Below, piece after piece: positions 23,199-54,300 of a stretch of 63,261 nucleotides of DNA. Under the pieces are notes generated by a model. That model was given only the letters and a program-made list of their open reading frames with translations, did no database searches and was not told the origin of the DNA. Position 1 is the first letter of the stretch; every line of letters begins with the position of its first letter. A program made the position numbers and the translations under genes. Origin of the DNA: Thermoanaerobaculia bacterium (GTDB taxonomy: Bacteria; Acidobacteriota; Thermoanaerobaculia; Multivoradales; UBA5704); assembly GCA_035949675.1 (NCBI GenBank), contig DASZHY010000090.1:1-63261 (forward strand). The letters are read 5' to 3'.

Positions 23199-23220
23199 AG
23201 CCCGCCATGGGAAGGAGCCA

Positions 23221-33108: not shown

Positions 33109-36100
33109 GACGATCTCCTCATTGATTCCTGCGGTCGAATGCCCGCGGCGGGGGCCGTCTCGATCTCCTCGAGGCAGCGGCGGAGCTCCTGCGCCAGCGC
33201 GCGTACGTGAGGCTCGCGGACCATCGACTCGTGGTGGCCGGGAACGTGCCTGAGGTCCACGGGCTCGACGGCGAGCTTGGACCAGCCGTAGGTCGGATCG
33301 CCCCGGGTCGCCCGCTCGTAGATCTCGCGCACCTCCGAGAGCTCGATGCCGAGGTTGGGCTCGGAGGTGCGGAACAGGCTGATCCTGCCGGCATAAGGCC
33401 GCGGCGCGTAGCGGTTCATCGCCTCGATCCTGGCGACGCGCACGTCGAAGTAGCGCCGCAGCGTGGGGCGATCGACGTCGAAAGGCAGGGCGTCGCGCTG
33501 CTGCAGCTCCTCGAGCAGCAGCTCCATCTGTGCCTCCGGCGGGAGGCCGGCGATGTCGTACGGGGTGATCGGGAGCGGTTGCTTGCCCGCTGCCTCCGCC
33601 GCTTCCTGGGCGTGGGTGACGAGCAGGAACGCGCGCATCAGGCCGGGATCGATCCGCGACATCTCCTCGCTGATCGCCGGCACGCTGCAGTCGAGCATCA
33701 GCAGGCGCGGCACCGGCTCGCCCGCCCGCATCAGCTGCTGCGCCATCTCGTAGGCGACCAGGCCGCCGAACGACCAGCCACCGACCAGGTACGGTCCGTG
33801 CGGCTGCGCCTCCTGCAGCGCCTTCACGTAGCGCGCCGCCATCTCCTCGATGCTGACGAAGGGGTCGCGGTCGCCTTCGACGTCGAGCGCCTGCAGCCCG
33901 TAGAGCGGCTGATCCGGCCCCAGATGGCGAGCGAGATCGAGGTAGCAGACGACGGTGCCATGACCCGGGTGCACCATGTAGAGCGGCTGGCCCGCGCCCA
34001 GCGGCTGGATCGGCACCAGGTGGCCGGCGGGCGGCGCATCGGCGGCGGCATCCAGCAGCTTGGCCTGCTCGGCGATCGTCCTCGCCGCCAGCAGCGTGCT
34101 GAGCAGGACCTGGACGTGCCACCGCTTGCGCAGCCGCGAGACCAGGCGCACCGCCAGCAGGGAATTGCCGCCGAGCGCGAAGAAGTCGTCGTCGGTGCCG
34201 ATCGCGCTGCTGTCCAGCAGCTCGCTCCACAGGTGGACGAGCTGCACCTCGGTCGGAGTGCGCAGGCGGGACGGGCGGCGGCCGCTCGCGGCGGCGGCGG
34301 GCGGCGGCAGCGCCTGGCGGTCGAGCTTGCCGGTACGGGTCAGCGGCAGGGCGGGCAGGCAGACCACGGCGCTCGGCACCAGCGGTGCGGGAAGCCTTTC
34401 CTCGAGGAACTGCTGCAGCTCGGCCGGTGACGCGCCGCCGGCGCGGTCCGCCACCACGTAGGCGACCAGCGCGGCGCCGCTCGGATCGCGATGCGCCTCG
34501 ACCGCCGCCTCCCGGACCGCCGGGTGCCGCAGCAGCGCCGCCGCGACCTCCTGCGGCTCGACGCGGAAGCCGCGGATCTTGACCTGGAAGTCCGTCCGGC
34601 CCAGGTACTCGAGCCGGCCGTCCGGCAGATGGCGGGCAAGGTCGCCGCTGCGGTAAAGGCGCGCCCCGGGCTCACCGCTCCAGGGGTCGGGGACGAACCT
34701 CTCTGCGGTCAGCGCGGGACGGCCGAGATAACCGCGGGCGAGGCCGGCCCCGCCCAAGTACAGGCCGGCCGCCACCCCGGGAGCCACTGGCCGCAGATGG
34801 GCGTCGAGTACGTAGAGGCGGGAATTCTGAAGCGGTTTGCCGATCGGCACCGTCGCGGCGCGGCGATCCTCGCTCTCGCCGGCGACCTCCTGGCTCGCCA
34901 CTGCCACTGTCGCTTCGGTCGGGCCGTATTCGTTCCAGATCCGCAGCCCGGGCGCCAGCGCCCGCACCCGCTCGCACAGCCCCCACCCCAGCGCCTCGCC
35001 GCCCAGCAGCAGCCAGCGGCGGGGCAGCACCCCCGCCGGCTGGGCATGCTCGAGCAGCGCCGCGAGATGAGAGGGCACGATCTTGAGGAAGTCGGCCGGA
35101 TGCCGGGACAGGTACTCGGCGAGCCGCTCGGGGTCCCGCGCCTGCTCGTCTCCGAGCAGGTGGAGCTCGCCGCCCGTGGCCAGGGCCGCGAACACCGCGG
35201 TGACACTGAGGTCGGCGGCCAGGGTGGAGAGCAGGGCGTAGCTGGCGCCGGCCGGCGGGCGGAGCAGCCCCAGGGTGGCCTCGAGGTAGCTGCGCAGCTG
35301 GCGGTGGCTGACCATCACGCCCTTGGGCTCGCCGGTCGAGCCCGAGGTGTAGATGACATAGGCCAGATGGTCCGCGAGGACGGCGGCAGGCGGTGCCGGC
35401 TCGTCGCCGGCGCCCGGCTCCCGCTGGCCGGCCGGGACGGCGGCGGGATCGATCAGCGGCGCTCCACAACCCTCGAAGCGGGCGTGCCAGCGCGGCTCGG
35501 CAATGACCGCGGCGGCCCCGCTGTCGGCCACCAGCTGGCGCAGCCGGTCCGGCGGGTCCGCGGGATCGAGCGGCACGTAGGCGGCGCCGGCCGCGAGCGC
35601 TCCCAGCATCCCGACGATGGCCGCCGGCGTCCGCTCGGCGCACACCGCCACCCGTGACTCCGGCCCGAGGCCGCGGCGCCGCAGCTCCCGGGCGAGGCGG
35701 CCGGCCAGCCGGTCGAGCTCGCCATAGGTCAGGCGCCCGCCGTCGCCGGCGATCGCCGGGCGCCCGGGCCAGCGAGCGGCCTGGGCCGCGAACAGCTCGT
35801 GAACCGGCCGCTCCGCCGGCGCCGCCGGCACGGGAGCGGCGCCGGGCGCGCCGCTCCACTCGACGAGCGCCGCATGCCGCTCGCCGGCCGAGAGCGGCGT
35901 GAAGACGTCATAGCGGCCGCCAAGGTCGGCCGCCGCGTGATCCAGCGCCGCCAGGTAGTAGTCCTTGATGGCGGCGATCTGAGCGTCCGCGAGCACGGCC
36001 CGGTCGCAATCCAGATTGAAGACCAGGTTGGGAGAGCTGTAGCTGGTCTGGAAGGTGACGATCAGGGGAAAGTTGGTTTCCTCGACGAAGACGCCGGACC

Positions 36101-39100
36101 CCGCCGACTCCATGCCGTGCGCGCGCACCGCGTCCTCCATGACGTGGAAATGCAGATAGAGGAACGAGGTTTCGAGGAGCTGCTGCCGGCCCCAGCGCTC
36201 CTGGATCGCGGCCAAGGGGTAACGGCGGTAGGGCGTCATCTCGATGACCAGCTGGTGGACGCGGCCGGCGAGCTCGCGCCAGGTGCCGGCGGCGAGATCC
36301 AGCCGCACCGGCAGGCTATTGAGGAAGATGCCGCCGGTCAGGTGCCCGTCGGGGGTTTCGAGCCGGCCGTTGGTGGACATGCTGGTGAGGGTGTCGTCCT
36401 TGCCGCCCAGGGCGCTCATCACCACCAGGTGGACCGCCAGCAGCAGGCTGCTGAGCGGCAGCGCCTCCTGGCGGGCCAGCCGGCGCAGGCGCTCGGCGAG
36501 CTCCGGCGGCAGCGGCAAGTCGTAGCGCCGCACCCGGCGCTTGCCGGGATCGCGCCGCACGCCGGGCCAGCGCGGCAACACGAGCGGCGAGCAGTCCTCG
36601 AGCTGCCGCGCCCAGAAGCGTTGGTGCTCCGGCGACTCCAAGGCGCGGCGCTCGAGCGCCACGAAGTCGCGGAAGGCGGCGCGCAGCGGCGGCAGCTCGG
36701 GCTCCGGCTCGCCGCGGACCAGCGCGAAGTAGCAGGTCAGCAGCTCGCTGTAGGCGCTGTGCAAGCTCCAGCCGTCGATGCAGGCGTGGTTCTCGGTGAG
36801 CGTGAACTGCAGCGTCTCGTCGCTGGTGCGGTGGATCTGGAAACGCAGCTGCGGCGGCCGGGAGAGGTCGAAGGGATGAACCAGCTCGCGCTCCCAGTAA
36901 TCCTCGATCGCCCGCCGCTGCTCGCTCTCGGGCAACCGGCGCAAGTCTTCGACCGCCACCGGGAAGCGCGGCTCGCGGTGCACCAGCTGCAGCGGCTCGC
37001 TGTAGCTCGCCAGGTCGAACGAGGTACGGAGATTGGCATGGCGGGCAGCGATCCGCAGCACCGCGGCCTGGAAGAGGTCGGGATCGAACGGCATCCGCAG
37101 GTGATAGCTGTTGATGCTGTGGAACACCGGCGCGTCAGGGCGCTCCTCCATGTGATAGAGCATCCCTTCCTGCATGCGGGCCAGCGGGTAGGCGTCTTCG
37201 ACGTCCTCCGGCAAGCGCCCGCGGTCCGCGGGCGCCACCAGGCTGAAGGGCTCGGTGTGCAGGGACGCGAACGCCGCCGCGCCCGCGTGCCCCCGGCCGC
37301 CGGCGGCAGCGACCACGGCAGCGAGCTCCGCGATGGTGGCGAGCTTGACCACCTGCTGCAGGGAGAGCTCGAGCCCCTTCTCCCTGCCCAGCGCCACCAC
37401 CTGGATGCTGCGGATCGAGTCGCCGCCCAGGGCGAAGAAGCCGTCCTCGACGCCGACCCTGTCGACGCCCAGGACGCGCGACCAGATCGCCGCCAAGGTC
37501 TCCTCGACCGCGTTGCGGGGCGCGACGTAGGCGGCTTCGAGCCGGCGTGGGGCGACGCCGGGCGCCGGCAGCGCACGCCGGTCGACCTTGCCGTTGGCGG
37601 TCAACGGCAGGTGCTCGAGCACCACGAAGGCGGCGGGCACCATGTGCTCGGGGAGGCGTTGCAGCAGCGCCGCCCGCAGCCGCTCGCCGGTCGGGTGCTC
37701 GCCGGCGGCGGCGACGTAGGCGACCAGCCGCCTGCCCTCCGGCTCGTCCCGCGCCACCACCGCCGCCGCCTGCACCGCCGGGTCGGCCAAGAGCGCGGCC
37801 TCGATCTCCCCGGGCTCGATGCGGTAGCCGTGCAGCTTGATCTGCCCATCCGCCCGCCCGAGGAGATCGAGCGTGCCCCAGGCGTCGTATCGCGCCAGGT
37901 CGCCGGTGCGGTACAGCCGCGCGCCGGGCTCGCCGCTCCAGGCGTCGGGGACGAAGCTGGCCGCGGTCAGGTCGGGGCGGCCGAGATAGCCGCGCGCCAG
38001 CTGCGCGCCGCCGACGTGGATCTCGCCGGTGACCCCGGCGGGCACCGGCTCGCCGTGAGCTGCGAGGAGATAGATGCGGCAGTTGGCGAGCGGACGCCCG
38101 ATCGGCACCGCGCCGGATGCCGGCGGGCCGGGCGCCGCCTGGTGGATGACGCAGCCGACCACGGTCTCGGTCGGCCCGTACTCGTTGATCAGGCGCGTGG
38201 CGGCCGCGTGCTCGTGCCAGAACGACAGCTCGCTGGCCGGCAGCATCTCGCCTCCCAGCACCAGTGCCCGGGTCGCGCCGGCGGCGGCGGCCGGCGGCAG
38301 GCCTCGGTTGAGCAGACCGAGGTGGGCCGGAGTGAGCTTCACCAGGCTGAATCCGGGAGCGTCCGCGAGCGACGCGGCCAGCGCCAGGGCGCCGCGGGAG
38401 GCGGGCAGGAAGACCACCCGCCGGCCGGCGAGCAGCGGGGTGAACAGGCTGGTCAGCGTCAGGTCGAAGGTGAGGGGAGAATGGACCGGCGCGCCGCTGC
38501 CGGCCGCGACCTCGTAGGCCGCCGTGGCCCAGGCGAGATAGTTGACGGCGCCGCGATGCGGCACCATGACCCCTTTGGGCGTGCCGGTCGAGCCCGAGGT
38601 GTAAAGGACGTAGGCGAGGTTGTCCGGGCCCGGGGCAGCGCCCGCCGCGGCGGCGGTTTCCTCGCCGGCCGCCGGCGCGGCGCCCGGCCCCGTGACCGCG
38701 GCTGCCTCGCCGGCGTCGACCAGGCTGAGGGCCGGGACCGGCGGCAGCGCCTCGCCCGGCTCCGGCCCCGTCACCACCACCGCGATCCCGGCGTCGCGCA
38801 GCAGCAGGGCGGTTCGCTCCGCCGGGTAGGCAGGATCGAGCGGCACATAGGCGCCGCCGGCCTTGAGGATGCCCAGCATCGCGGCCAGGGCGGCCGGCGA
38901 CGCGGCAAGGAAGAGGCCGACCGGGACGTCGGGTCCGACCCCCGCCTGGCGCAGCCGGCCGGCAATCCGGCCGGCCCAGGCGTCGAGCCGGCGATAGCTC
39001 CAGCTGCTCTCCCCTGCCGTCATCGCCACGGCGTCGCCGGCGCGTGCGGCCTGCAGCTCGAACAGCGAGTGCACCGACCGCGCCCCGGCGAGGTCCTCGC

Positions 39101-40544
39101 GCCGCGTGTCGTTCCAGCCGTGCAGGACCTGGTGCCGCTCGGCGGCGGTCAGCAGCGGCAGCTCCGAGATCCGGCGGTCGAGGTGCCGCGGCATCGCCGC
39201 GAGCAGCCGGCGGAGGTGCCCGGCCAACCGGGCGATGGTCGGCGCCGTGAACAGATCGGTGCAGTACTCGAGCGAGCCGCCGAGGCCGGACTCGTGCTGC
39301 TGCACGTTCCACAGCAGGTCGAACTTCGCGGTGCTGGTCGCGATGGGCAGCGGCGCGAGCGCCAGCTCGCCTGGATCGGGCGGCGCCTGGACGATGGTGT
39401 CCAGGTTGAAGAAGACCTGGAAGAGCGGGTTGCGGCTGGGATCGCGCTGCACGCCGAGCTCGGTGACCAGGGTCTCGAAGGGCAGCTCGCGATGGTCCTG
39501 GGTCTCGTAGAGCATCTCCCGCACCCGGCGCAACAGCTCACGGCACGTCGGATCGCCCCGCAGGTCCAGGCGCAGCACCAGGGTGTTGAGGAAGAGCCCG
39601 ATCAGGTCCTCGAGCTCGACCCGTTCGCGGCTGGCCGAGGGCGTCCCGACAAGGACGTCGTCCTGCCCCGCGTGGCGGGCGAGCAGCACCCCGAAGGCGG
39701 TCAACAGCACGGCGAACAAGGTCATCCCCTCGTTCCTGGCCAGCGCCGCCAACGCCGCGGTGCCGGCGCCATCGACGGCGAAGGCCGCCTTGGCGCCGCG
39801 CTGGCTCGAGACGGCCGGACGCGGGAAGTCCGTGGGCAGCGAAAGCGCCTGGTTGGCTCCCTGAAGCTGCTGCCGCCAGAACGCCACGAGCCTCTCGCGC
39901 ACCTCGCCCTGCAGCCAGTCGCGCTGCCATTGGGCGAAGTCGCCGTATTGCAGCGGCAGCTCCGGCAGCCGGGCGCTGGCGCCGCGGCGGGCGGCGCGAT
40001 ACCCGGCCAGCAGCTCGCGCAGGAGGATGCCCTCGGACCAGCCGTCGGAGACGATGTGGTGGACGCTGTAGAGCAGCGCGGATTCCCGCGCCGCGAGCGG
40101 AAAGAGGACCAGCCGCAGCAGCGGCCCGCGCGTCAGGTCGTAGGGCGCGAGAGCCGCCTCGGCCAGGCGCGCCGTCAGCTCGGGCTGGCGCCGCGACGGG
40201 GACAGCCGCCGCAGGTCGACGGTGGGCAGGGTGGCCCGCGGCGCCGGCGTCACCACCTGGACCGGCTCGCCGTCCATCAGGAAGAACGTGGTGCGCAGCA
40301 CCTCGTGGCGCCGCACCAGCTCCAACAGGCTGACCGCGAGCGCGCTCGGCTCGAGCTTGCCGCGCACCCGCCAGGCGGCGAAGAGGTTGTAGGCGGAGCT
40401 CCGTGGATAGAGCTGCGCCAGGAACCAGAGGCGCTGCTGCGCGAAGGAGATCGGCAGGACGTAGACCTCGTCGGCCGCGTGCTGCTCGGCCGGCGCGGGC
40501 GCGGCGGCGATCGGGTTGGCTTCCAGCTCGATCTCGTGCGGCAT
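33105..40544 (-). CDS. NRPS-4 (terminating): C-A(Asn-like)-T-C''-A(Asn-like)-T-TE
   Basis: The C domain has 'SFAQQRLWFL' and 'HHIVSDGWS'. The A domains have 'LAYVLYTSGSTGTPKGV' and 'LAYVIYTSGSTGEPKGV'. The carriers are 'FFALGGDSIRSIQ' and 'FFALGGNSLLAVRL'. The TE has 'GGWSFGGLVAYEMA'. Motif-anchored specificity residues are DLTKVGEVG(K) and DLTKLGEVA(K). Confidence 0.95.
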   Translation of the reverse strand: MPHEIELEANPIAAAPAPAEQHAADEVYVLPISFAQQRLWFLAQLYPRSSAYNLFAAWRVRGKLEPSALAVSLLELVRRHEVLRTTFFLMDGEPVQVVTPAPRATLPTVDLRRLSPSRRQPELTARLAEAALAPYDLTRGPLLRLVLFPLAARESALLYSVHHIVSDGWSEGILLRELLAGYRAARRGASARLPELPLQYGDFAQWQRDWLQGEVRERLVAFWRQQLQGANQALSLPTDFPRPAVSSQRGAKAAFAVDGAGTAALAALARNEGMTLFAVLLTAFGVLLARHAGQDDVLVGTPSASRERVELEDLIGLFLNTLVLRLDLRGDPTCRELLRRVREMLYETQDHRELPFETLVTELGVQRDPSRNPLFQVFFNLDTIVQAPPDPGELALAPLPIATSTAKFDLLWNVQQHESGLGGSLEYCTDLFTAPTIARLAGHLRRLLAAMPRHLDRRISELPLLTAAERHQVLHGWNDTRREDLAGARSVHSLFELQAARAGDAVAMTAGESSWSYRRLDAWAGRIAGRLRQAGVGPDVPVGLFLAASPAALAAMLGILKAGGAYVPLDPAYPAERTALLLRDAGIAVVVTGPEPGEALPPVPALSLVDAGEAAAVTGPGAAPAAGEETAAAAGAAPGPDNLAYVLYTSGSTGTPKGVMVPHRGAVNYLAWATAAYEVAAGSGAPVHSPLTFDLTLTSLFTPLLAGRRVVFLPASRGALALAASLADAPGFSLVKLTPAHLGLLNRGLPPAAAAGATRALVLGGEMLPASELSFWHEHAAATRLINEYGPTETVVGCVIHQAAPGPPASGAVPIGRPLANCRIYLLAAHGEPVPAGVTGEIHVGGAQLARGYLGRPDLTAASFVPDAWSGEPGARLYRTGDLARYDAWGTLDLLGRADGQIKLHGYRIEPGEIEAALLADPAVQAAAVVARDEPEGRRLVAYVAAAGEHPTGERLRAALLQRLPEHMVPAAFVVLEHLPLTANGKVDRRALPAPGVAPRRLEAAYVAPRNAVEETLAAIWSRVLGVDRVGVEDGFFALGGDSIRSIQVVALGREKGLELSLQQVVKLATIAELAAVVAAAGGRGHAGAAAFASLHTEPFSLVAPADRGRLPEDVEDAYPLARMQEGMLYHMEERPDAPVFHSINSYHLRMPFDPDLFQAAVLRIAARHANLRTSFDLASYSEPLQLVHREPRFPVAVEDLRRLPESEQRRAIEDYWERELVHPFDLSRPPQLRFQIHRTSDETLQFTLTENHACIDGWSLHSAYSELLTCYFALVRGEPEPELPPLRAAFRDFVALERRALESPEHQRFWARQLEDCSPLVLPRWPGVRRDPGKRRVRRYDLPLPPELAERLRRLARQEALPLSSLLLAVHLVVMSALGGKDDTLTSMSTNGRLETPDGHLTGGIFLNSLPVRLDLAAGTWRELAGRVHQLVIEMTPYRRYPLAAIQERWGRQQLLETSFLYLHFHVMEDAVRAHGMESAGSGVFVEETNFPLIVTFQTSYSSPNLVFNLDCDRAVLADAQIAAIKDYYLAALDHAAADLGGRYDVFTPLSAGERHAALVEWSGAPGAAPVPAAPAERPVHELFAAQAARWPGRPAIAGDGGRLTYGELDRLAGRLARELRRRGLGPESRVAVCAERTPAAIVGMLGALAAGAAYVPLDPADPPDRLRQLVADSGAAAVIAEPRWHARFEGCGAPLIDPAAVPAGQREPGAGDEPAPPAAVLADHLAYVIYTSGSTGEPKGVMVSHRQLRSYLEATLGLLRPPAGASYALLSTLAADLSVTAVFAALATGGELHLLGDEQARDPERLAEYLSRHPADFLKIVPSHLAALLEHAQPAGVLPRRWLLLGGEALGWGLCERVRALAPGLRIWNEYGPTEATVAVASQEVAGESEDRRAATVPIGKPLQNSRLYVLDAHLRPVAPGVAAGLYLGGAGLARGYLGRPALTAERFVPDPWSGEPGARLYRSGDLARHLPDGRLEYLGRTDFQVKIRGFRVEPQEVAAALLRHPAVREAAVEAHRDPSGAALVAYVVADRAGGASPAELQQFLEERLPAPLVPSAVVCLPALPLTRTGKLDRQALPPPAAAASGRRPSRLRTPTEVQLVHLWSELLDSSAIGTDDDFFALGGNSLLAVRLVSRLRKRWHVQVLLSTLLAARTIAEQAKLLDAAADAPPAGHLVPIQPLGAGQPLYMVHPGHGTVVCYLDLARHLGPDQPLYGLQALDVEGDRDPFVSIEEMAARYVKALQEAQPHGPYLVGGWSFGGLVAYEMAQQLMRAGEPVPRLLMLDCSVPAISEEMSRIDPGLMRAFLLVTHAQEAAEAAGKQPLPITPYDIAGLPPEAQMELLLEELQQRDALPFDVDRPTLRRYFDVRVARIEAMNRYAPRPYAGRISLFRTSEPNLGIELSEVREIYERATRGDPTYGWSKLAVEPVDLRHVPGHHESMVREPHVRALAQELRRCLEEIETAPAAGIRPQESMRRSS
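33108..34030 (-). other. Type I thioesterase domain of NRPS-4 (approximate bounds)
   Basis: 'PLYMVHPGHGTVVCYLDLARHL', the nucleophile elbow 'GWSFGG', and the C-terminal position after the last carrier domain. Confidence 0.85.
35890..37200 (-). other. Atypical condensation domain C'' in NRPS-4 (approximate bounds)
   Basis: The N-terminus is 'YPLARMQEGMLYH' rather than SxAQxRLW. The His motif is 'NHACIDGWS'. It sits directly downstream of a GGDSI-type carrier. Confidence 0.6.
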
Positions 40545-40548
40545 TGAA

Positions 40549-43500
40549 TCACTCCTCGAGCCGGGCGCCGCCGAGGACGCCCGCCGCGGTCCGGGTCACC
40601 CGGCGGCCCTGCCTGGCGAGCGGCGTGATCGCCGGTTCGCGCCGCGGCCCGGTGCCCTGGCGCTCCGCCGCTTCCACGGCGGCCGCCAGCTCGGCAACCG
40701 TCGAGCGTTGGAAGAAGGTGCGCAGCGGCAGCTCGACGCCGAGCGCCGCGGCCACCCGCGCCTGCACCCGGGTGGCGAGCAGGGAGTGACCACCCATCTC
40801 GAAGAAATCGCTGTCGGCGCCCACCTCCGCGATCTGCAGGACCTCCTCCCAGATCCGCGCCACCGCCGCTTCGACCGGGGTGCGCGGCGCGATCCGCGAG
40901 CGCCGCGACACCGGGGCCAGGGCCCCGGGATCCGGGAGGGCGCGCCGGTCGATCTTGCCGCCGGGGGTGACGGGCAGCTCTTCGAGGTAGATGAACGAGG
41001 CCGGCACGAAGGGCTCCGGCAGCCGGCCCTTGAGATAGGCGCGGAGCTCTCCGGCCTCCGGCCGGTCGGCGTCCGCCGCCACCAGGTATGCCGCCAGCTG
41101 CGGCTCCCGGCCCCCCTCCCGCAGCGCCGCGGCGGCGGCGCGCACGCGCGGGTGGTTGGCGAGGACCGCCTCGATCTCGCCCAGCTCGATGCGGAACCCG
41201 CGCACCTTCACCTGGTGGTCCAGGCGCCCCAGGAACTCGAGCTGGCCGTCCGCGCGCCGCCGCGCCAGATCGCCGGTGCGATAGAGCACGTCGCCGCGAA
41301 CCGAGCCGAAGGGGTTGGGAACGAAGCTCGCCGCCGTCTTCGCGGGCTGGCGCCAGTAGCCGCTGCCGACGCCGGCGCCCGCGATGCACAGCTCCCCGGG
41401 AACGCGATCGGGCACCGGCCGGAGGTGGCGGTCCAGGACATAGCAGCTGAAGTTGGCGAGCGGCCGGCCGATGGGCAGCACCGGGCCGGGCCAGGGGCGG
41501 TCCATGACGAGCTGGACGACGTCGTCGGCGGCCTCGGTCGGCCCGTAGGCGTTCACCGCGCGGACCGCCGGGTAGAGTGCGAACCAGGCCTCGATCAGCT
41601 CGCCGGGCACCGCTTCGCCGGTGGCCATCATGCAGCGCAAGGCCGGCATCGCGCGCTCCTCGGCGGCAAGCCCGGCCAGGTGGTCCAGCAGGTTGCGCAG
41701 CACCATCGGCACCAGCTCGATCAGCGTCGCCTGGTGGTCGCGGATCGCCGCCAGCAAGCGGGCCGGATCGCTCACCGTGAGCGCGTCGACGATGACCGTC
41801 CGGCCGCCCAGGGCGAGCGGGGCGAGGAGCTGCCAGACCGAGACGTCCGACGACGGCGGCGCGCTCTGCAGGAAGCAGAGCTCCGGCCCCAGCCCCAGCG
41901 CCTCGAACTGGGCGAACAGATGATTGACGGCGCCGGCGTGGCGCACGACGGCGCCCTTGGGGAGCCCGGTCGAGCCCGAGGTGTAGAGCATGTAGGCGGG
42001 ATCGCCGGGATCGCTAGGCGGCGGCGGCCCGGACCCGCCATCCGGCGCGGCCGGCCGGCGCGCCGCCTCGTCGAGGCACACCAGGCGAGGCAGCTCCCCG
42101 CCGACGCCGCCGGCGTTCAGGCCGGGGGCATTCAGGCCGGCGGCCAGCTCGCCGCCGGTGATCAGGATGCGGAGGCCGCTGTCGGCGATCATCGAACGCA
42201 CCCGCTCGACGGGATAGATCGGATCGAAGGGCACGAAGGCCGCACCGCTCTCGAGGATCGCCACGACCGCCGTGAGGAAGCCGAGATCGCGCTCCAGGTA
42301 GATGCCGACGAATCGTCCCGGCGCGGCCCCCAGCCGGCGCAGCAGCACCGCCAGCGCGCTCGCTCGGGTGTCGAGCGCGCCATAGCTGAGGAGCTCCCCG
42401 GCGCAGACCGCCGCGATGCGCTCGGGCGTTGCCGCCGCCTGGCCGGCGAAGAGCTCGTGCAGGGTCCGGGACGGATAGGAGCGCGCCTCTCCCCGCGCCG
42501 CGGCGAGCACCTGCTCGAGCTCCGCGGGACGCATCAGCGACAGCTCGCGCAGCGGCTCGCCCGGGGCGCCGGCCATCGACTCGAGCAGGGCTTCGAGATG
42601 GCCGAGCACCGCCGCGGCGGTCGCGTCGTCGAAGAGCTCGGCGGCGTACTCGAGAGTGAGCCCGAGGCCGGCCGGCAGCTCGTATGCGGTCAGGGTCAGC
42701 TCGAACTTGGCGGTCGCGGCGGGCAGCGCCAGGAACGACAGGCGCAGGCCCGGCAGCTCGAGCGCATCCCGCTCGTCGGCGTGCTGCATGTCGAAGACCA
42801 CCTGGTAGAGCGGCGTCACGGAGAGGTCGCGCCGCGGCTGCAGCTCCTCGACCAGGCGGTCGAAGGGCAGGTCCTGATGGGCGAAGGCACCGAGGACGGT
42901 CTCACGCACCCGCGCCAGCAGCGCCCGGACCGTCAGGGTCTCCTCCAGGCTGGTGCGCAGCACCAGGGAGTTGACGAAGAAACCGATCAGCCCTTCGACC
43001 TCGGCGCGGTCGCGGTTGGCGACGTTGGTGCCGACCACCACGTCGTCGCCCGCGCCGCAGCCCGCCAGCAGCACCTTCCAGGCGGCCAGCAGCGTCATGT
43101 AGAGGGTCGCCCCCGCGCCGCGCGCCAGCTGCGCCAGCCGGCCGGCGAGCGCGGCGTCGAGGACGCGGCCGCGGGTGCCGCCACGGAAGCTCGCGGTCGC
43201 CGGCCGCGGGCGGTCGAGCGGCAGCTGCGTGACCGCGGGCGCGCCGGCCAGCTGCCGCTTCCAGTAGGCGATCTGGCGCGCCAGCACCGGTCCCGCCAGC
43301 CACTGCCGCTGCCAGCAGGCGAAGTCGCCGTACTGCACCGGCAGCTCCGGCAGCGCGGCGTCGGCGCCGGCCGCCAGCGCCGCGTAGAAAGCGCCGAGCT
43401 CTCGCCGCAGGATGCCGGACGACCAGCCATCCGAGACGATGTGATGCAGGTTGAACAGCAGCACGTGCTCCTCGCCGCCGAGACGGAAGAGCGCCAGCCG

Positions 43501-46500
43501 CAGCAGCGGGTCGCGGGCCAGGTCGAAGACCCGCCGCGCCTCCTCCCGTTCGAGCCGTTCGACCTCGGCGCGGGCGGCCGCCAAAGGCAGCGCCGCGAAG
43601 TCCGCCACCGGCACCCGCGATTGGCGCTGCTCGCGCACCAGCTGCACGGGCTCGCCCGCCGCCGAAGGAAACGAGGTGCGCAGCACCTCATGGCGGCGGA
43701 CGATCGCCGAGACCGCTCCCGCCAGTGCCCGCGGGTCGAGAGGGCCCGACAGCAGCAGGGCGCCCGGCAGGTTGTAGGCCGGGTTCTCGGGCTCGAGCTG
43801 CTGCAGGAACCACAGGCGCTGCTGGGCGAAGGAGAGCGGCAGCGGCCGGTCGCGCGGCACGCGCACGAGCGGTGGCGCGGCGGCGCCGGCGGCGGCCTGC
43901 CGCTTCGCCATCGCCGCGGCGGCGAACCGGCGCACGGTGGGGTTGTCGAACAGATCGCGCAGCCGCAGCTCGGCGCCCAGCGCCTGGCGGGCGCGGGTGG
44001 TCACGCGCGTGGCCGAGAGCGAGTGTCCGCCGAGCGCGAAGAAATCGTCGTCGATGCCGATCCGTTCGACGCCGAGCACCTCGGCGAAGATCGCGGCCAA
44101 GATCTCTTCGCCGGGCCCGCGCGGCGCGGCCGGCGGCGGCGCGCCGGCTGGCCGCGGCGCCGGCGGCGCCGGCAGGGCGGCGCGGTCGAGCTTGCCGCCG
44201 GGGGTGCGCGGCAGGGTCGCGAGCTCGACGATGACCGGCGGCACCATGTAGTCGGGCAGCCGCGCGGCGAGGAAGCCGCGGAGGCCGCCGTCCCGCGGCG
44301 CCGGGGCGGTGGGAGAAGCCGCCGGGCGCGGCGGGCGCCTGGCCGCGGGCCGCGCTCCGGCCTCCCGCCGGCTGCGGGCGGCGTGGACGTGAACCATGCC
44401 GGCTCCCGGCAGCGGCGCTTCCCGGTGAACCACCGGCAGAAAGCCGTGTGCCTGCAGGCGGCGGGCGACGGCGGCGGCCCTGCCGTCGTGGTCGTGGGCC
44501 TCGATCACGACCTGACGGACCTTGTCCCAATCCTCCTCGGCCAGGCCGTCCAGCACGTCGAGCTCGCTCTTCTCGACGTCGATCTTGAGCAGATCGATGC
44601 GCTCGATCCGCTCCTGCCGGATGACCTGCGAGAGCGTCTTCACCTGGCAGGCGAAGGGCCGGCCCTGGAAGCGGTCGGCGAGCAGCTCGGCGGTCTCCTC
44701 CTCGCTCAACCCCGCCGCCGCGCCTGAGAGCGCGGCGCGCGTGATCCGTTCCTCGTCGGCACGGTCGGGATAGGCGCCGGACATGGCCGACCAGCGAGGG
44801 TAGAAGGTGAAGCTGCGGGTGCCGGCGTCGCGCCCCAGCCCGCAGGGATGCAGCCGCGCGTCGAGCCCATGCAGCGCCGCGTTGGCCGCGAGCACCTCGA
44901 AGATCGGCGGCAGCGGCTCGAAGCAGTGCAGGCGGCAGTCCGGCTGGCGGCGCTTGACGAACAGCGCGAAAAGACCGACGTTGGCGCCGACGTCGAAGAC
45001 GCAGGCGCCCGCGGCCAGCTCGATGCCATGCGCCAGATAGCGCTCCTGCTCGAAGATCTCGCGGTACAGCAGCTCGGTCTCGCCGCGGTTGAGGCAGGCC
45101 ACCTCGAGCCCGTTGGGCAACCGGCAGAGCTTCAGGCCGCGCGCCGCCTCGGCGCCGCCGGGAGCCAAGGCGGGGCGGGTCGCCACGTAGGCGATCAGGC
45201 GGCGCTCCCCCGCCGGGTCCTCGCGCACCACCACCGCCGCCTCCTGCACCGCCGGATGCGCGAGCAGCGCCGCCTCGATCTCGCCCGGCTCGATGCGAAA
45301 GCCGCGGATCTTGACCTGGCCGTCGATGCGGCCGAGGAACTCGAGGTGGCCGCCGGGCAGATGGCGGGCAAGATCGCCGGTCCGGTAGAGGCGCTCGCCG
45401 CCGCGGGCGCTCCATGGGTGCGGGACGAAGCGCTCGGCGGTCAGCTCCGGGCGGCCCTGGTAACCGCGGGCAAGGCCGGCGCCGCCGAGCAGGATCTCGC
45501 CCGCGAGACCGGGCGGCGCGGTGGCGCCGCGGTGATCCGCCAGGTGGACCTCGACGTTGGCGACGGGCTTGCCGATCGGCACGGTCGGGCCGTCCGCGGC
45601 GGCGATGGCCGCGGACCATTCCTCGCAGGTGGCGTCGATCGCCGCTTCGGTCGGACCGTAGAGATTGCACAGCTCCGCTCCGACGCGCGCGAGCCACCGC
45701 CGGGCCAGCTCCTTGGGCAGCGCCTCGCCGCCGCAGAACAGGCGCCGCAGGCTGGCGCAAGCGGCGGCCGCCGCCGGTTCGAGAAGCAGCGGCCCCAAGA
45801 GCGACGGGACGAGCTGCAGCAGCGTCACCTGCTCGCGGGCGACCAGCTCGAGCAGCAGGGCGCTGTCGCGGTGCTCGCCCGGCGCGGCGAGCACCAGCCG
45901 CGCGCCGGTCATGAGCGGCAGGAAGATCTCCCAGATCGCGGCGTCGAAGCTGTAGGGGGTCTTCTGCAGCACGTGGTCGCCGGGCTGCAAGGGGAATGCG
46001 TGCTGCATCCAGCGCAAGCGGTTGACGATGGCGCGATGCTCGACCATCACCCCCTTGGGCCGGCCGGTGGAGCCGGAGGTGTAGATCAGGTAGGCGAGGT
46101 TCCCGGGTCCCGTGTTGCCGGCGGCCTCGCGGCGCAGGCCGTCGACGGCGGGCAGATCGCGGCGGCCGGCGCCCGTGCCTGCCGGGCCGGTGCCGGGGGC
46201 GTCGACGCACAGCACCGCGGCGACCCGCTCGGCGCCGTCGCCGAGGCTGCCGCGCAGGCTCTCGCGGGTGAGGAGCACCGCCGCCCGCGAGTCCTGCAAC
46301 ATGAAGCGGAGGCGCTCCGCCGGGTACTCCGGATCGAGCGGCACCCAGGCGCCTCCCGCGGCGACGATGCCCAGCAGCCCGATCACCATCTCCGGCGAGC
46401 GCTCGAGGCAGAGAGCGACCCGCACCTCCGCCGACACCCCTGACCGCCGCAGGCGGCCGGCCAGCCGCGACACCGCCGCCGCCAGACAGGCATAGCTCAG

Positions 46501-47954
46501 ATGGCGGCCGCCGCAGGTCAGCGCCACCCGCTCCGGCGTCCGCTCCGCCTGCTCGACGAAGAGAGCGGCAAGCGTCGTCTCCGGACCGAGCGCGGACGGC
46601 GCCGCGCTCCACCCGCCCAGCAGCCGGCGCTCGCCGGCGGGCAGCAGCCGCAGGTCGTCGAGGGCAGCGGCCGGCCGCGCCGCCGCATCGCGGAGCAGCG
46701 CCGCGTACCAGCCCGCGACCCGCGTCACCGCGCGCCGGGCAAACGTGCCGGCGTCATAATGCAGCTCGAGCCGCAGCCGCTCGCCGCAACGCCAGCCGGA
46801 GAGCTTCAAGGCGAAGCGGTCGCCACAGGAAAAGGACCGCGCCAGGGTGAAGGCGGTCCGGCTGCCGCGCGGCAGCGCCGGCAGCTCGTGGAACTCGAAG
46901 CAGTGCGGCAGGAAGCGCGGCAGGCCGCGCGGCGCCGCCAGGCCCTGCCAGTCCCAGTACTCCTGCCACTGCCAGTGCTCGGCGGTCCCCTGCCGCACGG
47001 CGGCCAGCAGGTCGGCGAGCCTGCCCGCCCGCGGCCACGCCGGTGCCAGCGGCAGGAAGCGCTCGAAGGGACCCGCCGCGTCGGCCAGCTCCTCGAACTT
47101 GCGGCCGTTGCAGGCGCAGCCGATGCGGCCGCCGCCGGGCCCGATCAGCCGCTCGAGCAGGAGCTGCCAGACCGCCATGAGCAGATCGGACTGGGTGGCG
47201 CCGAACGACTCGGCGACGCGCGCGGCGCGGGCGAGCAAAGCCGCCGACAGCCGCAGCTCGAGACGCTTCACCTGCAGCGTCCGGCCTGGCGCCTCGTCCG
47301 CGGCCATCGGCAGGCGCGGCGGCGCGTCCAGGCTGCCGTTCCCAGCCGCCGTCTCCCAGAATTTCCGCCCGGCCTCGGTGTCGGGCGAGGAGAGCAGGTC
47401 ATTGGCCCAGCCCGCGGCATCGGCATACTGCAACGGCTCGCCGCCCGGCGGATCGCCGAGGTAGCAGCGCGCCGCCTCGCCGGCGATGCGGCCGAGCGCC
47501 GGCACGTCGGCGCAGAGCGCGGGCAGGCCCAGCAGCAGCAGCCATCGCTCCGCCGCCTGGCGCAGCAGCACGCCGGCGAGCACGGGTCCTGTCTCGAGGT
47601 CACGAGGCAGTTCCAGAAGACGGGCGAAGGCGGCCTCGGCCTGGCGGCGCCGCGCCCGCGGGCCGCAGCCGGCGAGGTCGCAAACCGCCAGGCGCTGCGG
47701 CCTGACCGCCGAGATCGCCTGCAACGGCAGGCGCATCCCGGGGAGCCGCCGGAACGTGGTGCGGAGGATCTCGTGGCGCCGGCAGACGTGCGTCAAGGCC
47801 GCCGCGAGCGCGCCGACCTCGAGCGCGCCGGCGATCCCGATCGCGACCACGCTTTGATGCGGCGATCGCGTGTCGCCGGCCGCGAGCGTCCACAGCCGCC
47901 GCTGTTGCGGCGACAGCTCGAACCCCGCGAACGCCGGTTGCGGATCGCCGCTGC

Positions 47955-47958
<4 letters not shown>
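40549..47958 (-). CDS. NRPS-3: C*(no catalytic His)-A(Gln-like, interrupted by FkbM-type MT)-T-C-A(Dab-like)-T
   Basis: The TTG start forms a TTGA overlap with the NRPS-2 stop. The first 1012 aa of the tracked ORF are out-of-frame read-through of NRPS-2. A-domain motifs are 'LAYLIYTSGSTGRPKGV' and 'PAYMLYTSGSTGLPKGA'. The carriers are 'FFALGGHSLSATRV' and 'FFEMGGHSLLATRV'. The internal C domain has 'HHIVSDGWS'. Specificity residues are DAWQFGLID(K) and DVWEMTADD(K). Confidence 0.9.
44380..45150 (-). other. FkbM-family SAM-methyltransferase domain inserted between A-domain core motifs a8 and a9 of NRPS-3 module 1 (approximate bounds)
   Basis: The insert begins after 'GRIDGQVKIRGFRIEPGEIE...RRLIAYV'. 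It contains 'LPNGLEVACLNRGETELLYREIFEQERYLAHGIEL', 'VFDVGANVGLF', 'CFEPLPPIFEVL' and 'IDLLKIDVEKSELDVLDGL'. The A domain then resumes with 'LPDYMVP...PRTPGGKLDR'. Confidence 0.8.
46640..47958 (-). other. Condensation-superfamily domain lacking HHxxxDG (C*: interface/X-like) at the NRPS-3 N-terminus (approximate bounds)
   Basis: C1-like 'ELSPQQRRLWTL' and C2-like 'RRHEILRTTF' are present. The C3 position reads 'LLLGLPALCADVPAL' (HH replaced by LP, G by V). No HHxxxD occurs anywhere in the ~440 aa. Confidence 0.65.
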
Positions 47959-51299
<3,341 letters not shown>

Positions 51300-51339: not shown

Positions 51340-54300
51340 TCAGGCGACCTCGTTGAAAGCCGTGATCAACTGCCCGGCGGCGGCTTCGTCGAGCAGGGAC
51401 AGGCTCGACAGGCGGCGATCCGGCTCGGCGACGAGGCAGGCGAGCAGCTCTTCGAACTGCCTGGCGAGGCGGCGGATGACGGCGGCCTCGAAGAGGTCGG
51501 TGGAGTAGGCGAACAGGCCGCTGATCTCTCCTTGCTCGCCGGTGATGGTGAGGGTGAGATCGGACTGCGAGGTATCAAGCCGGTACTCGAAGGCGCTCGA
51601 GGTGAGCCCCGGCAGCTGGCGCATGTCGCCGTCGAAGTTCAGCAGCTGGAACTTGACCTGGAACAACGAGGCGCCGGCACGCTGCGGCGCGAGGTCCTCG
51701 AGCACCCGCTCGTACGGCACGTCCTGGTGCTCGTAGGCGGCAAAGGCCGTGTCGCGGACCCGCGCGACGAGCTCGCGGAAGGTGGGATCGCCCGACAGGT
51801 CGGTGCGCAAGACCAGCGTGTTGACGAAGAAACCGATCATCTTCTCGAGCTCGATGCGGCCGCGGTTCGCGGTCACCGTGCCGACGATGAGGTCATCCTG
51901 GCCGGTGTAGAGGCGCAGCAGGGCCTTCCAGGCCGCGAGCAGGAGAACGAACGTCGTAACCCCTTCCCGGCCGGCGAACCGGCGGAGCGCATCCGACGAG
52001 CCGCCGTCGAGACGGAAGGCTTCCACCTGGCCGCGATAGGTCGGGCTCGCCGGCCGCTGCCGCCGCATCGGCAGGCGGAGCACCGGCAGGTCCCCGGCGA
52101 GCCTCGCCCGCCAGTAGGCGAGCTGGCGGTCGAGCGCCTCGTCGGAGAGCCACTCTCGCTGCCAGAGCGTGTAGTCGGCGTACTGGACGGGCGGCTCGGG
52201 CAGCGGCGAGGCACGGCGCTCGACCTGAGCGGCATAGAGCGCCGCGATCTCGTCGCTCAGCAGGCCGAGGGACCAGCCGTCGGCCACGATGTGATGGAGG
52301 TGGAAGATCGCCACGTGGTCGGTGGGCGAGAGGCGCAGCAGCGAGGTGCGCAGCAGCGGCCCGCGTCCCAGGTCGAAGGGGCGCCCGAGCGCCTGGTCGA
52401 CCAGGCGCCGCGCCGCCGTCTCCCGCTGTTCGGGCGCCAGGCCGCCAAGATCGACACCGGCCAGCAGCTGCGGCCGGTGGGGAGCGATGACCTGCACCGG
52501 CCCGTCGCCGATCAGCGGGAAGGTGGTGCGCAAGCTCTCGTGACGCCGGCAGATCTCGCTCACGCTCGCCGCCAGCGCCGGTGCGTCCAGCCTGCCCGTC
52601 AGGCGGAGGACCAGCGGCAAGTTGAAAGCCGTGCTCCCCGGGTTGAGCTGCTGCAGAAACCACATCCGCTGCTGGGCGAACGACAGCGGCAGGAGGGCCG
52701 GACGGGGCCGCTTGCCGAGCGGCGCCACGGCCGGGGCGGGGCGCGCTCCGGGCTCCGCGCCCGCGGCGCGCAGAGCGGTGACGGCCGCGGCAAGGCCGGC
52801 GATGGTCGGGTTGTCGAACAGGCTGCGCAGCGGCAGCTCGACGCCGAGCAGGTGGCGGATGCGGGTGGCGACTTGCACCGCCGACAGGGAATGCCCCCCC
52901 AGGGCGAAGAAATCATGCCGGGCCCCGACGCCCTGGACTCCCAGCACCTCTTCCCAGATCGCCGCCAGCGCCGACTCCACCTCGCCGGACGGAGCCACGA
53001 AGGCGCTCGCGGGGTCGAGGTTCGCCAGCTCGGGCTCGGGCAGCGCCTTGCGGTCGAGCTTGCCGTTGGCGGTGAGCGGCAGCTTCGCCAGGCCGACGTA
53101 GACGTCCGGCACCATGTAACCCGGCAGCGCCCGCTCGAGGTGCGCCTTGAGCTCCCGCGCCGCCGGCATCGCCGCGGCCACCACGTAAGCGCACAGGAAC
53201 TTTTGTCCCGAGCGGTCGGTGCGCGCCGTCACCGCCGCCTCCTGCACGGACGGATGGCGGCAGAGCTGGCTCTCGATCTCTCCCAGCTCGATGCGGAAGC
53301 CGCGCACCTTGACCTGGTGGTCGCGGCGCCCCAGGAACTCGAGCTCGCCGCCCGGCAGCATCCGTCCCAGGTCGCCGGTGCGATAGAGCCGGGCTCCCGG
53401 CTCGCCCGCCAAAGGATCGGGCACGAAGGCGGCAGCCGTCTTCGCCGGGTCCGCGGCGTAGCCGCGCGCGACGCCCATGCCGCCGATGTAGAGGTCCCCG
53501 ATCACGCCGGGCGGCAGCAGCTCCAGGCTGCCGTCCAGCAGGTAGCAGGTGTTGTTGGCGAGCGGGCGGCCGTAGGGGATGCTGGCCAGGGTGGGATCGA
53601 CGGCCGCGATCGGCTCGATGGGATGGTAGACCGACCACACCGCCGCTTCCGTGGCGCCGCCCAGGCCGACCACGCGGGCGTGCGGGAAGAACCGGCGCGC
53701 CCTCTCCGGCAGGCCCACGGGAATCCAGTCGCCGCTCAAGAAGATCAGCCGCAAGGACTCGCAGCGCGCGGCCGGCGCGCTCGCCTCCAGGTACTCGACG
53801 AGCAGGCCGAGCGTCGAGGGCACGGAGTTCCAGAAGGTCACGCCCTGCTCGGCGACCAGGCGCCACAGCAGCGACGGCTCCTGCACCTCCTCGGCGCGCG
53901 CCACCACCACCGCGGCACCTGCCGCCAGGGCGCCGAAGACGTCGTAGACCGAGAGATCGAAGCACACCGACGACACCATCAGCACCCGCTGCCCGGGACC
54001 GATGCCGTACTCCTCGTTGACCCAGTCGACGAGGTTGGCGGCGCTCGCGTGCTCGATCATCACCCCCTTGGGCAACCCGGTCGATCCCGAGGTGTAGATC
54101 GTGTAGGCGAGCTGCGACGGCAAGGCGAGCGCCGGCAGCGGCGAGCCGGACACGCGCGCCAGGTCCGCCGCGGCAGGCGCCAGCCACTCCACCTCCGCCT
54201 CGCCCGCCTCGCCGCCGAGGTCGTAGGTCCGGTCGGCCAGCACGCGCCGCACCCCGGACTGCCGCACGATGTGCGCCTTGCGTGCGGCCGGGTAGTCCGG

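Follow-up and report, generated by a model that had tools for sequence, protein, structure and literature searches.

The nonribosomal peptide synthetase operon and its interrupted, glutamine-coded module

The stretch of DNA analysed here, referred to throughout as the window, comprises 63,261 nucleotides of contig DASZHY010000090.1 (assembly GCA_035949675.1) from a Thermoanaerobaculia bacterium; its GC content is 65-76% and it carries on the minus strand an operon of nonribosomal peptide synthetase (NRPS) genes. The subject of this report is the first module of the NRPS encoded by geneC (40549-47958, minus strand), in which an adenylation (A) domain with a glutamine code is interrupted by a methyltransferase (MT) of the FkbM family. 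By analogy with AmbE, from the methoxyvinylglycine (AMB) pathway of Pseudomonas aeruginosa, it is probable that glutamine tethered to this module first receives a hydroxyl group, which the embedded MT then methylates.

The geneC protein is 2469 aa long and, as judged from its translation, start context, Pfam matches and motif positions, has the domain order Q(C*)-A(MT)-T-C-A-T, in which C denotes condensation, T thiolation and Q (or C*) a condensation-like domain lacking the catalytic histidines. The frame is open on the minus strand from 47958 to 40549, and the real start is the TTG at 47958, which forms a TTGA overlap with the stop codon of the preceding geneB (47955-47958). A longer open reading frame (ORF) listed as a single gene at 40549..50994 was rejected as a chimera, its first ~1010 codons being a wrong-frame read-through over geneB. 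A second overlap, ATGA, joins the stop codon of geneD to the start of an oxygenase gene, TauD1 (33105-33108), and both overlaps are typical of translational coupling.

The module opens with the Q domain (46639..47958, minus strand), in which LPALCAD stands at the position of the HHxxxDG motif, in agreement with the His-less C* domain of the original prediction. The N-terminal part of the A domain (45172..46596, minus strand; PF00501) comprises a1 to a8 together with the last strand before the insert and includes a3 (YTSGSTGRPKG), the pocket residues DAWQFGLID and a8, QVKIRGFRIEPGEIE, which contains QVKIRGFRIE (45318-45274, aa 881-895). The boundary RLIAYVATRP (aa 920-929) leads into the insert, which runs for 295 aa (44287..45171, minus strand) until the A domain resumes at GLRGFLAARLPDYMVP. 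Within the insert, VFDVGANVGLF (45000-44968) forms part of the S-adenosylmethionine (SAM) motif VFDVGANVGLFAL (44962-45000), and the two further strings first quoted as FkbM hallmarks, CFEPLPPIFEVL and IDLLKIDVEKSELDVLDGL, lie at 44925-44890 and 44598-44542, respectively; every quoted string was thus found, and in the place given for it. The C-terminal end of the insert is a linker of 31 aa (44287..44379, minus strand; ARSRREAGARPAARRPPRPAASPTAPAPRDG) with seven prolines, nine alanines and eight arginines and a pLDDT below 50 in the predicted structure, and an alignment places a variable stretch of similar length at this position in NRPS-embedded homologues. The A domain is then completed (44182..44286, minus strand) by a9, LPDYMVP (44259-44239, aa 1234-1240), and a10, PGGKLDR (44202-44182), which supplies the lysine of the specificity code, so that its AMP-binding_C region is split around the insert. 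The range 44270-45150 originally proposed for the MT, equivalent to aa 937-1230 of geneC, was essentially exact. Its length had been slightly underestimated at about 260 aa, and of the Pro/Ala/Arg linker the composition was correct, the length of about 40 aa being too great.

Behind the A domain lie the T domain of the module (43894..44106, minus strand; PF00550), with the serine motif FFALGGHSL at 44017-44043, which is presumed to carry the glutamine during both hydroxylation and methylation, and a downstream C domain (42493..43860, minus strand) with an intact HHIVSDG motif. The latter is ordinary and LCL-like, sharing 41-49% identity with the other canonical C domains of the cluster vs 28-31% with the C2 domains of AmbE orthologues.

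The specificity code of the interrupted A domain, read by anchoring on the GrsA positions and then confirmed on alignments, is DAWQFGLIDK, and the glutamine signature noted at the outset was therefore read correctly. The code of the tyrocidine synthetase Gln module is also DAWQFGLIDK (PMC2866473 Table 2; PMC8313283), an agreement at 10/10 positions, from which we infer that glutamine is the substrate. The code of the other geneC A domain, DVWEMTADD, looks diaminobutyrate (Dab)-like.

The assembly line as a whole contains at least eight A domains spread over several proteins, three of them, outside the module, being Asn-coded. geneA (51340-63156, minus strand) is cut by the end of the window and encodes four C, three A and four T domains, whilst geneB (47955-51299, minus strand) encodes, by Pfam and sequence, an A-T-C protein of AmbB-like architecture with the C-domain motif HHIVSDV and the A-domain code DARHLALMT; geneB is identical to a gene on contig Ga0372960_0003899 of the JGI metagenome 3300037852. 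On the other side of geneC, geneD (33105-40544, minus strand) has the order C-A-T-C-A-T-TE, ending in a thioesterase (TE). The hydroxylase genes which the original prediction had placed in the operon are indeed there, on the same minus strand: TauD1 (32047-33108) and TauD2 (27979-28953) both encode Fe(II)/2-oxoglutarate oxygenases, the former with the motif HNE...HAR (PF02668, E = 2e-48) and the latter, which is more divergent, with HNE...HGR (PF02668, E = 2e-36).

A type II methyltransferase of the FkbM family

The insert matches PF05050 (Methyltransf_21) with 66.2 bits against a cutoff of 22.7 (E = 5e-18, profile positions 1-171/173) and TIGR01444 (fkbM_fam) with 101.9 bits against a cutoff of 37.7 (E = 4e-29, profile positions 2-143/143), and it lies between the located a8 and a9 motifs, as had been proposed. 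In an alignment of the insert with 18 homologues, D94, G96, N98 and G100 of DVGANVG and E119 of CFEP are invariant across all 19 sequences, as are the YP of FTFYP and the DLLK block; the SAM-binding residues are accordingly intact. An AlphaFold2 (AF2) model of the MT domain (pLDDT 82.9, pTM 0.76) has the Rossmann-type core of a class I MT fold, and the PDB matches listed by Foldseek, among them 2py6 ('Methyltransferase FkbM'), are class I MTs or complexes with such an enzyme as a component, although the TM-scores reach only 0.3-0.4 when normalised to the query length. A sequence search of the PDB with the insert gave no match at E < 1e-3, and this class of embedded MT is thus without a solved structure similar at the sequence level.

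Methyltransferase inserts of this kind have been described by Lundy, Mori and Garneau-Tsodikova (2020; PMC8341866) as the type II M domain of family 2a interrupted A domains, which is inserted between a8 and a9, measures 290 +/- 13 aa and is represented by KtzH (O-methyl-Ser, kutznerides) and ColG (columbamides). The same authors define six motifs, ms(O,Ser/Thr,a8-a9) i-vi, one of which is a SAM motif of the unusual form DVGx(N/H)xG, and a boundary before the M domain of the form L(V/A/I)(A/G)(Y/F)xxx (PMC8341866). The sequence LIAYVAT fits this boundary pattern and all six motifs are present in the insert, with i, iii, iv and v exact. Motif ii, VFDVGANVGLFAL, has one conservative change, an alanine where serine or threonine is expected, and motif vi, WDKVRQVVIEAH, is likewise conservatively changed (V for I and A for V). 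The N-methylating type I domains, of which TioS A4 is the example, are longer (~390 aa vs the 295 aa of the insert), and a search of geneC for their motifs i, ii, iv and vi, based on the mb(a8-a9) patterns GxGxG, (N/S)S(V/I)xQYFP and NE(L/M)x(K/R/Q)(F/Y/H)RY, returned none; the type III M-domain motifs were likewise sought in geneC and none was found. The insert is almost certainly, then, a type II FkbM-family domain, and the novelty that the original prediction had implied for it, relative to the known N-MT inserts, does not hold.

The likeness to the KtzH A4/ColG family extends to the a8-a9 site, the size, the boundary and the six motifs, which ColG also carries, and KtzH itself is a PF05050 match. 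The difference lies in the substrate: the family has been described for hydroxyls already present in serine or threonine, whereas the window module has a Gln code and a Q-like upstream domain, and oxygenases would have to create the hydroxyl. Membership of family 2a is also defined by a Ser/Thr-specific host A domain, and in this respect the window departs from the definition; so do many of its relatives, only 29/67 of which are Ser/Thr-coded (see below).

A survey of PF05050 across MIBiG (PMC9259500 supplement) lists KtzH, FrsG, the aurantimycin NRPS and AmbE as NRPS members, all of them assigned O- and not N-methylation, and the stand-alone PF05050 proteins LptK and CymP are assigned as O-methyltransferases of beta-hydroxy residues. 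The insert shares 39-40% identity with the MTs of AmbE orthologues, 42% with FkbM and 40% with LptK. Taking motifs and assigned relatives together, the insert is best explained as a putative functional side-chain O-methyltransferase. That it has lost its activity and survives purely as a structural element of its host A domain is very improbable given the conservation of all SAM-binding and family motifs, including the residues invariant in the 19 homologues, and the confidently predicted fold.

Relatives of the insert are numerous. They form 195 protein clusters in a large protein database, many with the arrangement AMP-binding / Methyltransf_21 / AMP-binding_C / PP-binding, and are present in at least 449 loci of species-representative genomes, mostly from the Acidobacteriota and cyanobacteria with some from the Myxococcota and other groups. 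A neighbour-joining (NJ) tree of the MT domains was set aside as evidence of orthology; it is star-like, and although its Ser/Thr-rich part separates, the insert does not fall firmly in the AmbE clade.

The Q-like domain, the oxygenases and the likeness to AmbE

AmbE has the order Q-A-MT-T1-C2-T2-TE; AmbC and AmbD hydroxylate the T1-bound glutamate at C3 and C4, the AmbE MT O-methylates the 4-hydroxyl, the C domain of AmbB adds alanine, and dehydration by C2 and a decarboxylation then give the vinyl ether (PMC10880069, PMC8968710). The function of the AmbE Q domain has been described as unknown, and the recruitment of AmbC and AmbD as an open question (PMC10880069, PMC8968710). In the present comparison AmbE of strain PAO1 (PA2302) was represented by its first 399 aa, and domain comparisons were made with orthologues (50-54% identity) from three other Pseudomonas genomes (L079-L081), each of which has a syntenic AmbB-like A-T-C gene and two TauD genes.

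Among characterised systems, AmbE stands closest to the module taken as a whole. The window Q domain shares 33% identity over 322 aa with the PAO1 N-terminus (E = 2e-15), and at the aligned HHxxxDG site LLLGLPALCAD in the window faces LLLAAPAFVVD in AmbE, with LLLxxPAxxxD in common. The order of Q, A, an FkbM-type MT between a8 and a9, T and C is the same in both, and geneC residues 12-1729 are colinear with the AmbE orthologue of L081 (31% identity over these ~1700 aa). By domain, identity to the AmbE orthologues is 28-29% for Q, 37-39% for A, 39-40% for MT and 28-31% for C2. The resemblance continues into the operon, where the gene for an AmbB-like A-T-C protein precedes geneC (geneB shares 30-32% identity with the AmbB orthologues) and two TauD genes are present, TauD1 with 42-47% and TauD2 with 40-42% identity to the AmbC/AmbD orthologues and both with intact HxE...H motifs. 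There are also clear differences. The window code, DAWQFGLIDK (W239/Q278), is unlike the Glu-type DSKD[LM]GLVNK (K239/D278) of the AmbE orthologues; the downstream C domain is ordinary and followed by A-T, where AmbE has the dehydrating C2 followed by T2-TE; the module sits in a multi-protein line with at least eight A domains, whereas AMB is the product of a two-protein dipeptide system; and the oxygenase genes of the window are not adjacent to the module, for which no decarboxylative enol-ether formation would be expected.

Within its own assembly line the Q domain stands apart, with 26-33% identity (34-84 bits) to the other C domains, and it is the only Q-like domain in the visible line. 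The second C domain of geneD was considered as another candidate and dismissed, as it reads NHACIDG and groups with DCL/dual-type domains. This domain (aa ~1075-1540, beginning YPLARMQEGMLYH) clusters with a C domain of geneA (aa ~2395-2850; HHAMLDG), and, although there is no E domain, both also group with AmbE-C2-like and DCL/dual-type domains, a hint that D-residues or a dehydration may occur at other positions of the peptide.

A scan with an alignment of Q-like domains found them in at least 564 loci, and details were taken from the best 80 (L084-L163). In this set the domain lies at the N-terminus of an NRPS ORF in every case (80/80) and never contains HHxxxDG (0/80), most members reading LPALCAD-like. 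None of the 80 loci has an MT insert, and a TauD gene is found in 66 of them, mostly ending just upstream of the NRPS gene. Since a TauD gene accompanies so many of these domains and an MT insert none, the Q-like domain is tied to the oxygenase and not to the MT. The codes of the adjoining A domains were Asp in 33 cases, His in 15, Asn in 11 and Gln in 4-5, with a few others. Nine Q-A-T modules of this set share the code DARHMGVID, each with a TauD gene in its locus, and may represent another class of hydroxylated substrate.

A His-less, hydroxylase-linked 'interface domain' was reportedly described by Reitz et al. in 2019. The window Q domain presumably belongs with this type, a likeness that draws on its linkage to TauD genes. 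Both are condensation-superfamily domains without HHxxxDG, placed before an A domain whose residue is, or in the window would be, hydroxylated by a TauD-type enzyme; the sampled relatives of Q are without an MT, in contrast to the window module. antiSMASH 8 cites Reitz et al. 2019 for its beta-hydroxylase and interface-domain profiles, and a literature search pairing AmbE with 'interface domain' returned unrelated papers only; one on the MTs of oxyvinylglycine NRPSs brought nothing further.

The distribution of Q-like domains and oxygenases was then compared across 67 FkbM-interrupted A domains from the loci examined, with codes read over the a4-a5 region; the association counts derive from best-80 lists, drawn from the at least 449 insert loci and at least 564 Q-like loci given above. 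Ser codes (17/67), Glu-type codes (DAKDLGVVD and similar, 13/67) and Thr codes (12/67) are the most frequent, followed by Asp (6/67), Gln (3/67), Asn (2/67) and DASQIALID (2/67), with other codes in 12/67. The Gln count includes the window, the other two being uncharacterised acidobacterial modules (L033 and L035). An upstream domain was scored as Q-like when it had no HH motif and matched the window C* better than a canonical C domain. On this basis a Q-like domain precedes 14/20 of the Glu/Gln/Asp/Asn-coded modules vs 0/24 of those coding for Ser or Thr (Fisher p = 3e-7), and a TauD gene is present in the locus for 13/23 vs 1/29, respectively (Fisher p = 2e-5). When the FkbM-interrupted modules are divided by upstream domain instead, a TauD gene accompanies 11/17 with a Q-like domain vs 2/39 with an ordinary C domain. 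By code class, then, a substrate that brings its own hydroxyl goes with an ordinary C domain and the absence of an oxygenase, whilst modules for a hydroxyl-free substrate usually have both a Q-like domain and an oxygenase.

Several members of the sample deserve separate mention. Modules with Glu/Asp-type codes in L064 and L075 (Xanthobacter) and in L041 and L060 (Binatia) have an ordinary upstream C domain and no TauD in the locus; here the MT may act on the side-chain carboxylate, yielding a methyl ester. In a separate group (L037, L043, L059, L062, L067, L068 and L073) the codes follow the pattern xLLQ[LM]G[MLV][IV]W, and a full upstream C domain is not recognisable. The acidobacterial loci L066, L029 and L011 each contain two FkbM-interrupted Glu/Asp-coded modules a short distance apart. 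Both members of the pair are of the Q-A(MT)-T kind in L066 and L029, whose peptides may thus bear several methoxy groups.

Proposed chemistry and its alternatives

By analogy with AmbE, L-glutamine would be activated by the A domain and transferred to the T domain of the same module. There it would be hydroxylated at C3 and/or C4 by one TauD enzyme or by both, held in place by the His-less Q domain, and the embedded MT would methylate the hydroxyl so formed with SAM as the donor. Joining of the upstream peptide to the modified residue would fall to the C domain of geneB, acting in trans, and the ordinary downstream C domain would hand the chain to the Dab-like module. The predicted product is a methoxyglutamine residue, either 3-methoxy-Gln or, following AmbE more closely, 3-hydroxy-4-methoxy-Gln, within a peptide of at least eight residues. 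This route is preferred because of the linkage between Q-like domains and TauD genes, the AmbE precedent and the association of code with TauD, and the hydroxylation followed by O-methylation put forward as a testable idea in the original prediction is thus in keeping with both the closest characterised system and the comparative genomics. Of the three findings named beforehand as speaking against that prediction, a missing FkbM-family match, lost SAM-binding residues and close homologues known to be N-methyltransferases, none was made. Recruitment of the oxygenase by the Q domain is the part of the scheme that we infer from genomic linkage only.

Parallels outside the AMB pathway are the cystobactamid linker enzymes CysH, CysJ and CysQ and the A54145 enzyme LptK, where TauD-type hydroxylation of a carrier-bound Asn or Asp followed by O-methylation gives a beta-methoxy residue; beta-methoxy-Asn (in the cystobactamids and theopapuamide) and methoxy-Asp residues are already known. 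In those pathways, however, the MTs are stand-alone and act in trans, and CysH has an AMDH domain in place of an embedded MT and takes Asn as its substrate.

A number of observations weigh against the proposed route. The TauD genes lie ~11.5 and 15.7 kb downstream of the insert and not beside the module, and the three Asn-coded modules of the line are alternative targets for them. NJ trees were also tried as a means of assigning the two enzymes to the C3 (AmbC) or C4 (AmbD) type, and this was abandoned because the trees are inconsistent and long-branched: with 25 sequences TauD1 and TauD2 are sisters, whilst with 106 TauD1 joins the partners of Asp-type Q-A-T modules and TauD2 groups weakly with AmbC/AmbD, so that these shallow trees place neither as AmbC or AmbD type. 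As the NRPS is cut by the window end, further Q-type modules may lie upstream. The association statistics take no account of phylogenetic non-independence and come from the best-80 lists, and database matches to the insert reach 46-56% identity at best, every one of them a metagenome protein. Finally, membership of the FkbM family alone does not fix the methylated atom, as one member, EreM, is a backbone N-methyltransferase in a pathway to a ribosomally synthesised and post-translationally modified peptide (RiPP) (PMC9259500).

This last precedent, set on the backbone amide of a RiPP, bears on the possibility that the MT methylates nitrogen, be it that of the side-chain amide, with N5-methyl-Gln as the product, or the alpha-amino nitrogen, with the TauDs serving other modules such as those coded for Asn. 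Glutamine has no hydroxyl of its own, and the distance of the TauD genes and the presence of the three Asn-coded A domains would also suit such an arrangement. It is nevertheless unlikely: the type I motifs are missing and all of the type II motifs are present, the NRPS-linked PF05050 members of the MIBiG survey are assigned as O-methyltransferases, and the sole Q-like, TauD-linked domain of the visible line sits immediately before the Gln A domain. Moreover, the Gln code also turns up in MT-free Q-A-T modules whose loci contain a TauD gene, so that hydroxylation of tethered glutamine appears common in such systems.

It is likewise unlikely that the A domain loads glutamate or a pre-formed hydroxy-amino acid, made by a TauD acting on the free amino acid, with the MT then acting on its hydroxyl or carboxylate. 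A specificity code is a prediction, the majority of the FkbM modules with a Q domain carry Glu codes (the Glu-type making up 13/67 of the sample), and the Glu/Asp-coded modules without Q and TauD described above may make methyl esters. Against this, 10/10 code positions agree with those of a Gln module that was assigned by biochemistry. Positions 239 and 278 of the A-domain pocket contact the terminus of the side chain, and it is exactly at the positions expected to do so that the window departs from the Glu codes. In the AmbE system and in CysH/CysJ of the cystobactamid pathway, furthermore, the oxygenases work on a carrier-bound residue.

Less probable still is a true AMB-type unit, in which the action of both oxygenases and methylation of the 4-hydroxyl are followed by a dehydration, perhaps accompanied by loss of C5, that leaves an oxyvinylglycine-type enol-ether or dehydro residue within the peptide. 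The colinearity with AmbB and AmbE, the correspondence of the two TauDs to ambC and ambD and the weak grouping of TauD2 with AmbC/AmbD are what such a unit would display; the Gln code with W239/Q278 in place of the Glu-type K239/D278 and the lack of T2-TE after the downstream C domain are not. An AMB-like vinyl ether is unlikely because a carboxamide cannot leave as CO2 and so, on chemical grounds, could not drive the decarboxylative vinyl shift, and because the downstream C domain is ordinary and not of the dehydrating type. Were such a warhead to be made, which is equally improbable, a peptide of at least eight residues would become a carrier-delivered inhibitor of pyridoxal-phosphate enzymes, and a 3-hydroxy-4-methoxy-Gln residue would be the milder version of the same idea.

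The remaining genes of the operon lie between and beyond the two oxygenase genes, all on the minus strand. An EctB-type diaminobutyrate transaminase (30695-~32020; TIGR02407, 618 bits) and an ABC transporter of the cyclic-peptide exporter type (28995-30650; TIGR01194) separate TauD1 from TauD2, and an SbnA-family pyridoxal-phosphate enzyme associated with 2,3-diaminopropionate (26969-~27970; TIGR03945, 429 bits) follows; no SbnB partner was seen for it. Beside the cluster, on the plus strand (23176-26406), is an AcrB-type efflux pump with 87-89% identity to pumps from metagenome-assembled genomes of Thermoanaerobaculia; together with the metagenomic match of geneB, this makes an uncultured acidobacterium the probable source. 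The flank at 1-26400 seems otherwise unrelated to the cluster and encodes a galactose-oxidase-like protein, an S1/P1 nuclease, a MacB/FtsX permease, SbcCD, a sigma-54 activator with a GAF domain and a BNR/sortilin-repeat protein.

The architecture of the geneC module is therefore known at two levels, that of the family 2a interrupted A domains and that of the AmbE-type module. What appears to be new is the Gln code, uncommon in this class (3/67), the position of the module inside a long assembly line and the predicted residue, which is apparently unreported; a search of roughly 8 million papers gave no occurrence of 'methoxyglutamine' or 'methoxy-glutamine'. If the prediction is true, methoxy-Gln would be a new building block and an incremental addition to known chemistry. 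For the family more generally, the Ser/Thr rule for type II interrupted A domains is too narrow, as more than one third of the sample is coded for Glu, Gln, Asp or Asn. The linkage of Q-like domains to TauD genes offers a testable answer to the role of Q in AmbE and to the recruitment of AmbC and AmbD, for which the Gln module and its relatives are alternative test proteins. TauD, a Q-like domain and A(MT)-T together form a widespread cassette, in which most of these Glu-, Gln-, Asp- or Asn-coded modules are found and which, should the module work as proposed, could be used in genome mining for the prediction of methoxy-amino-acid residues; both this cassette and the widening of type II beyond Ser/Thr extend existing ideas rather than overturn them.

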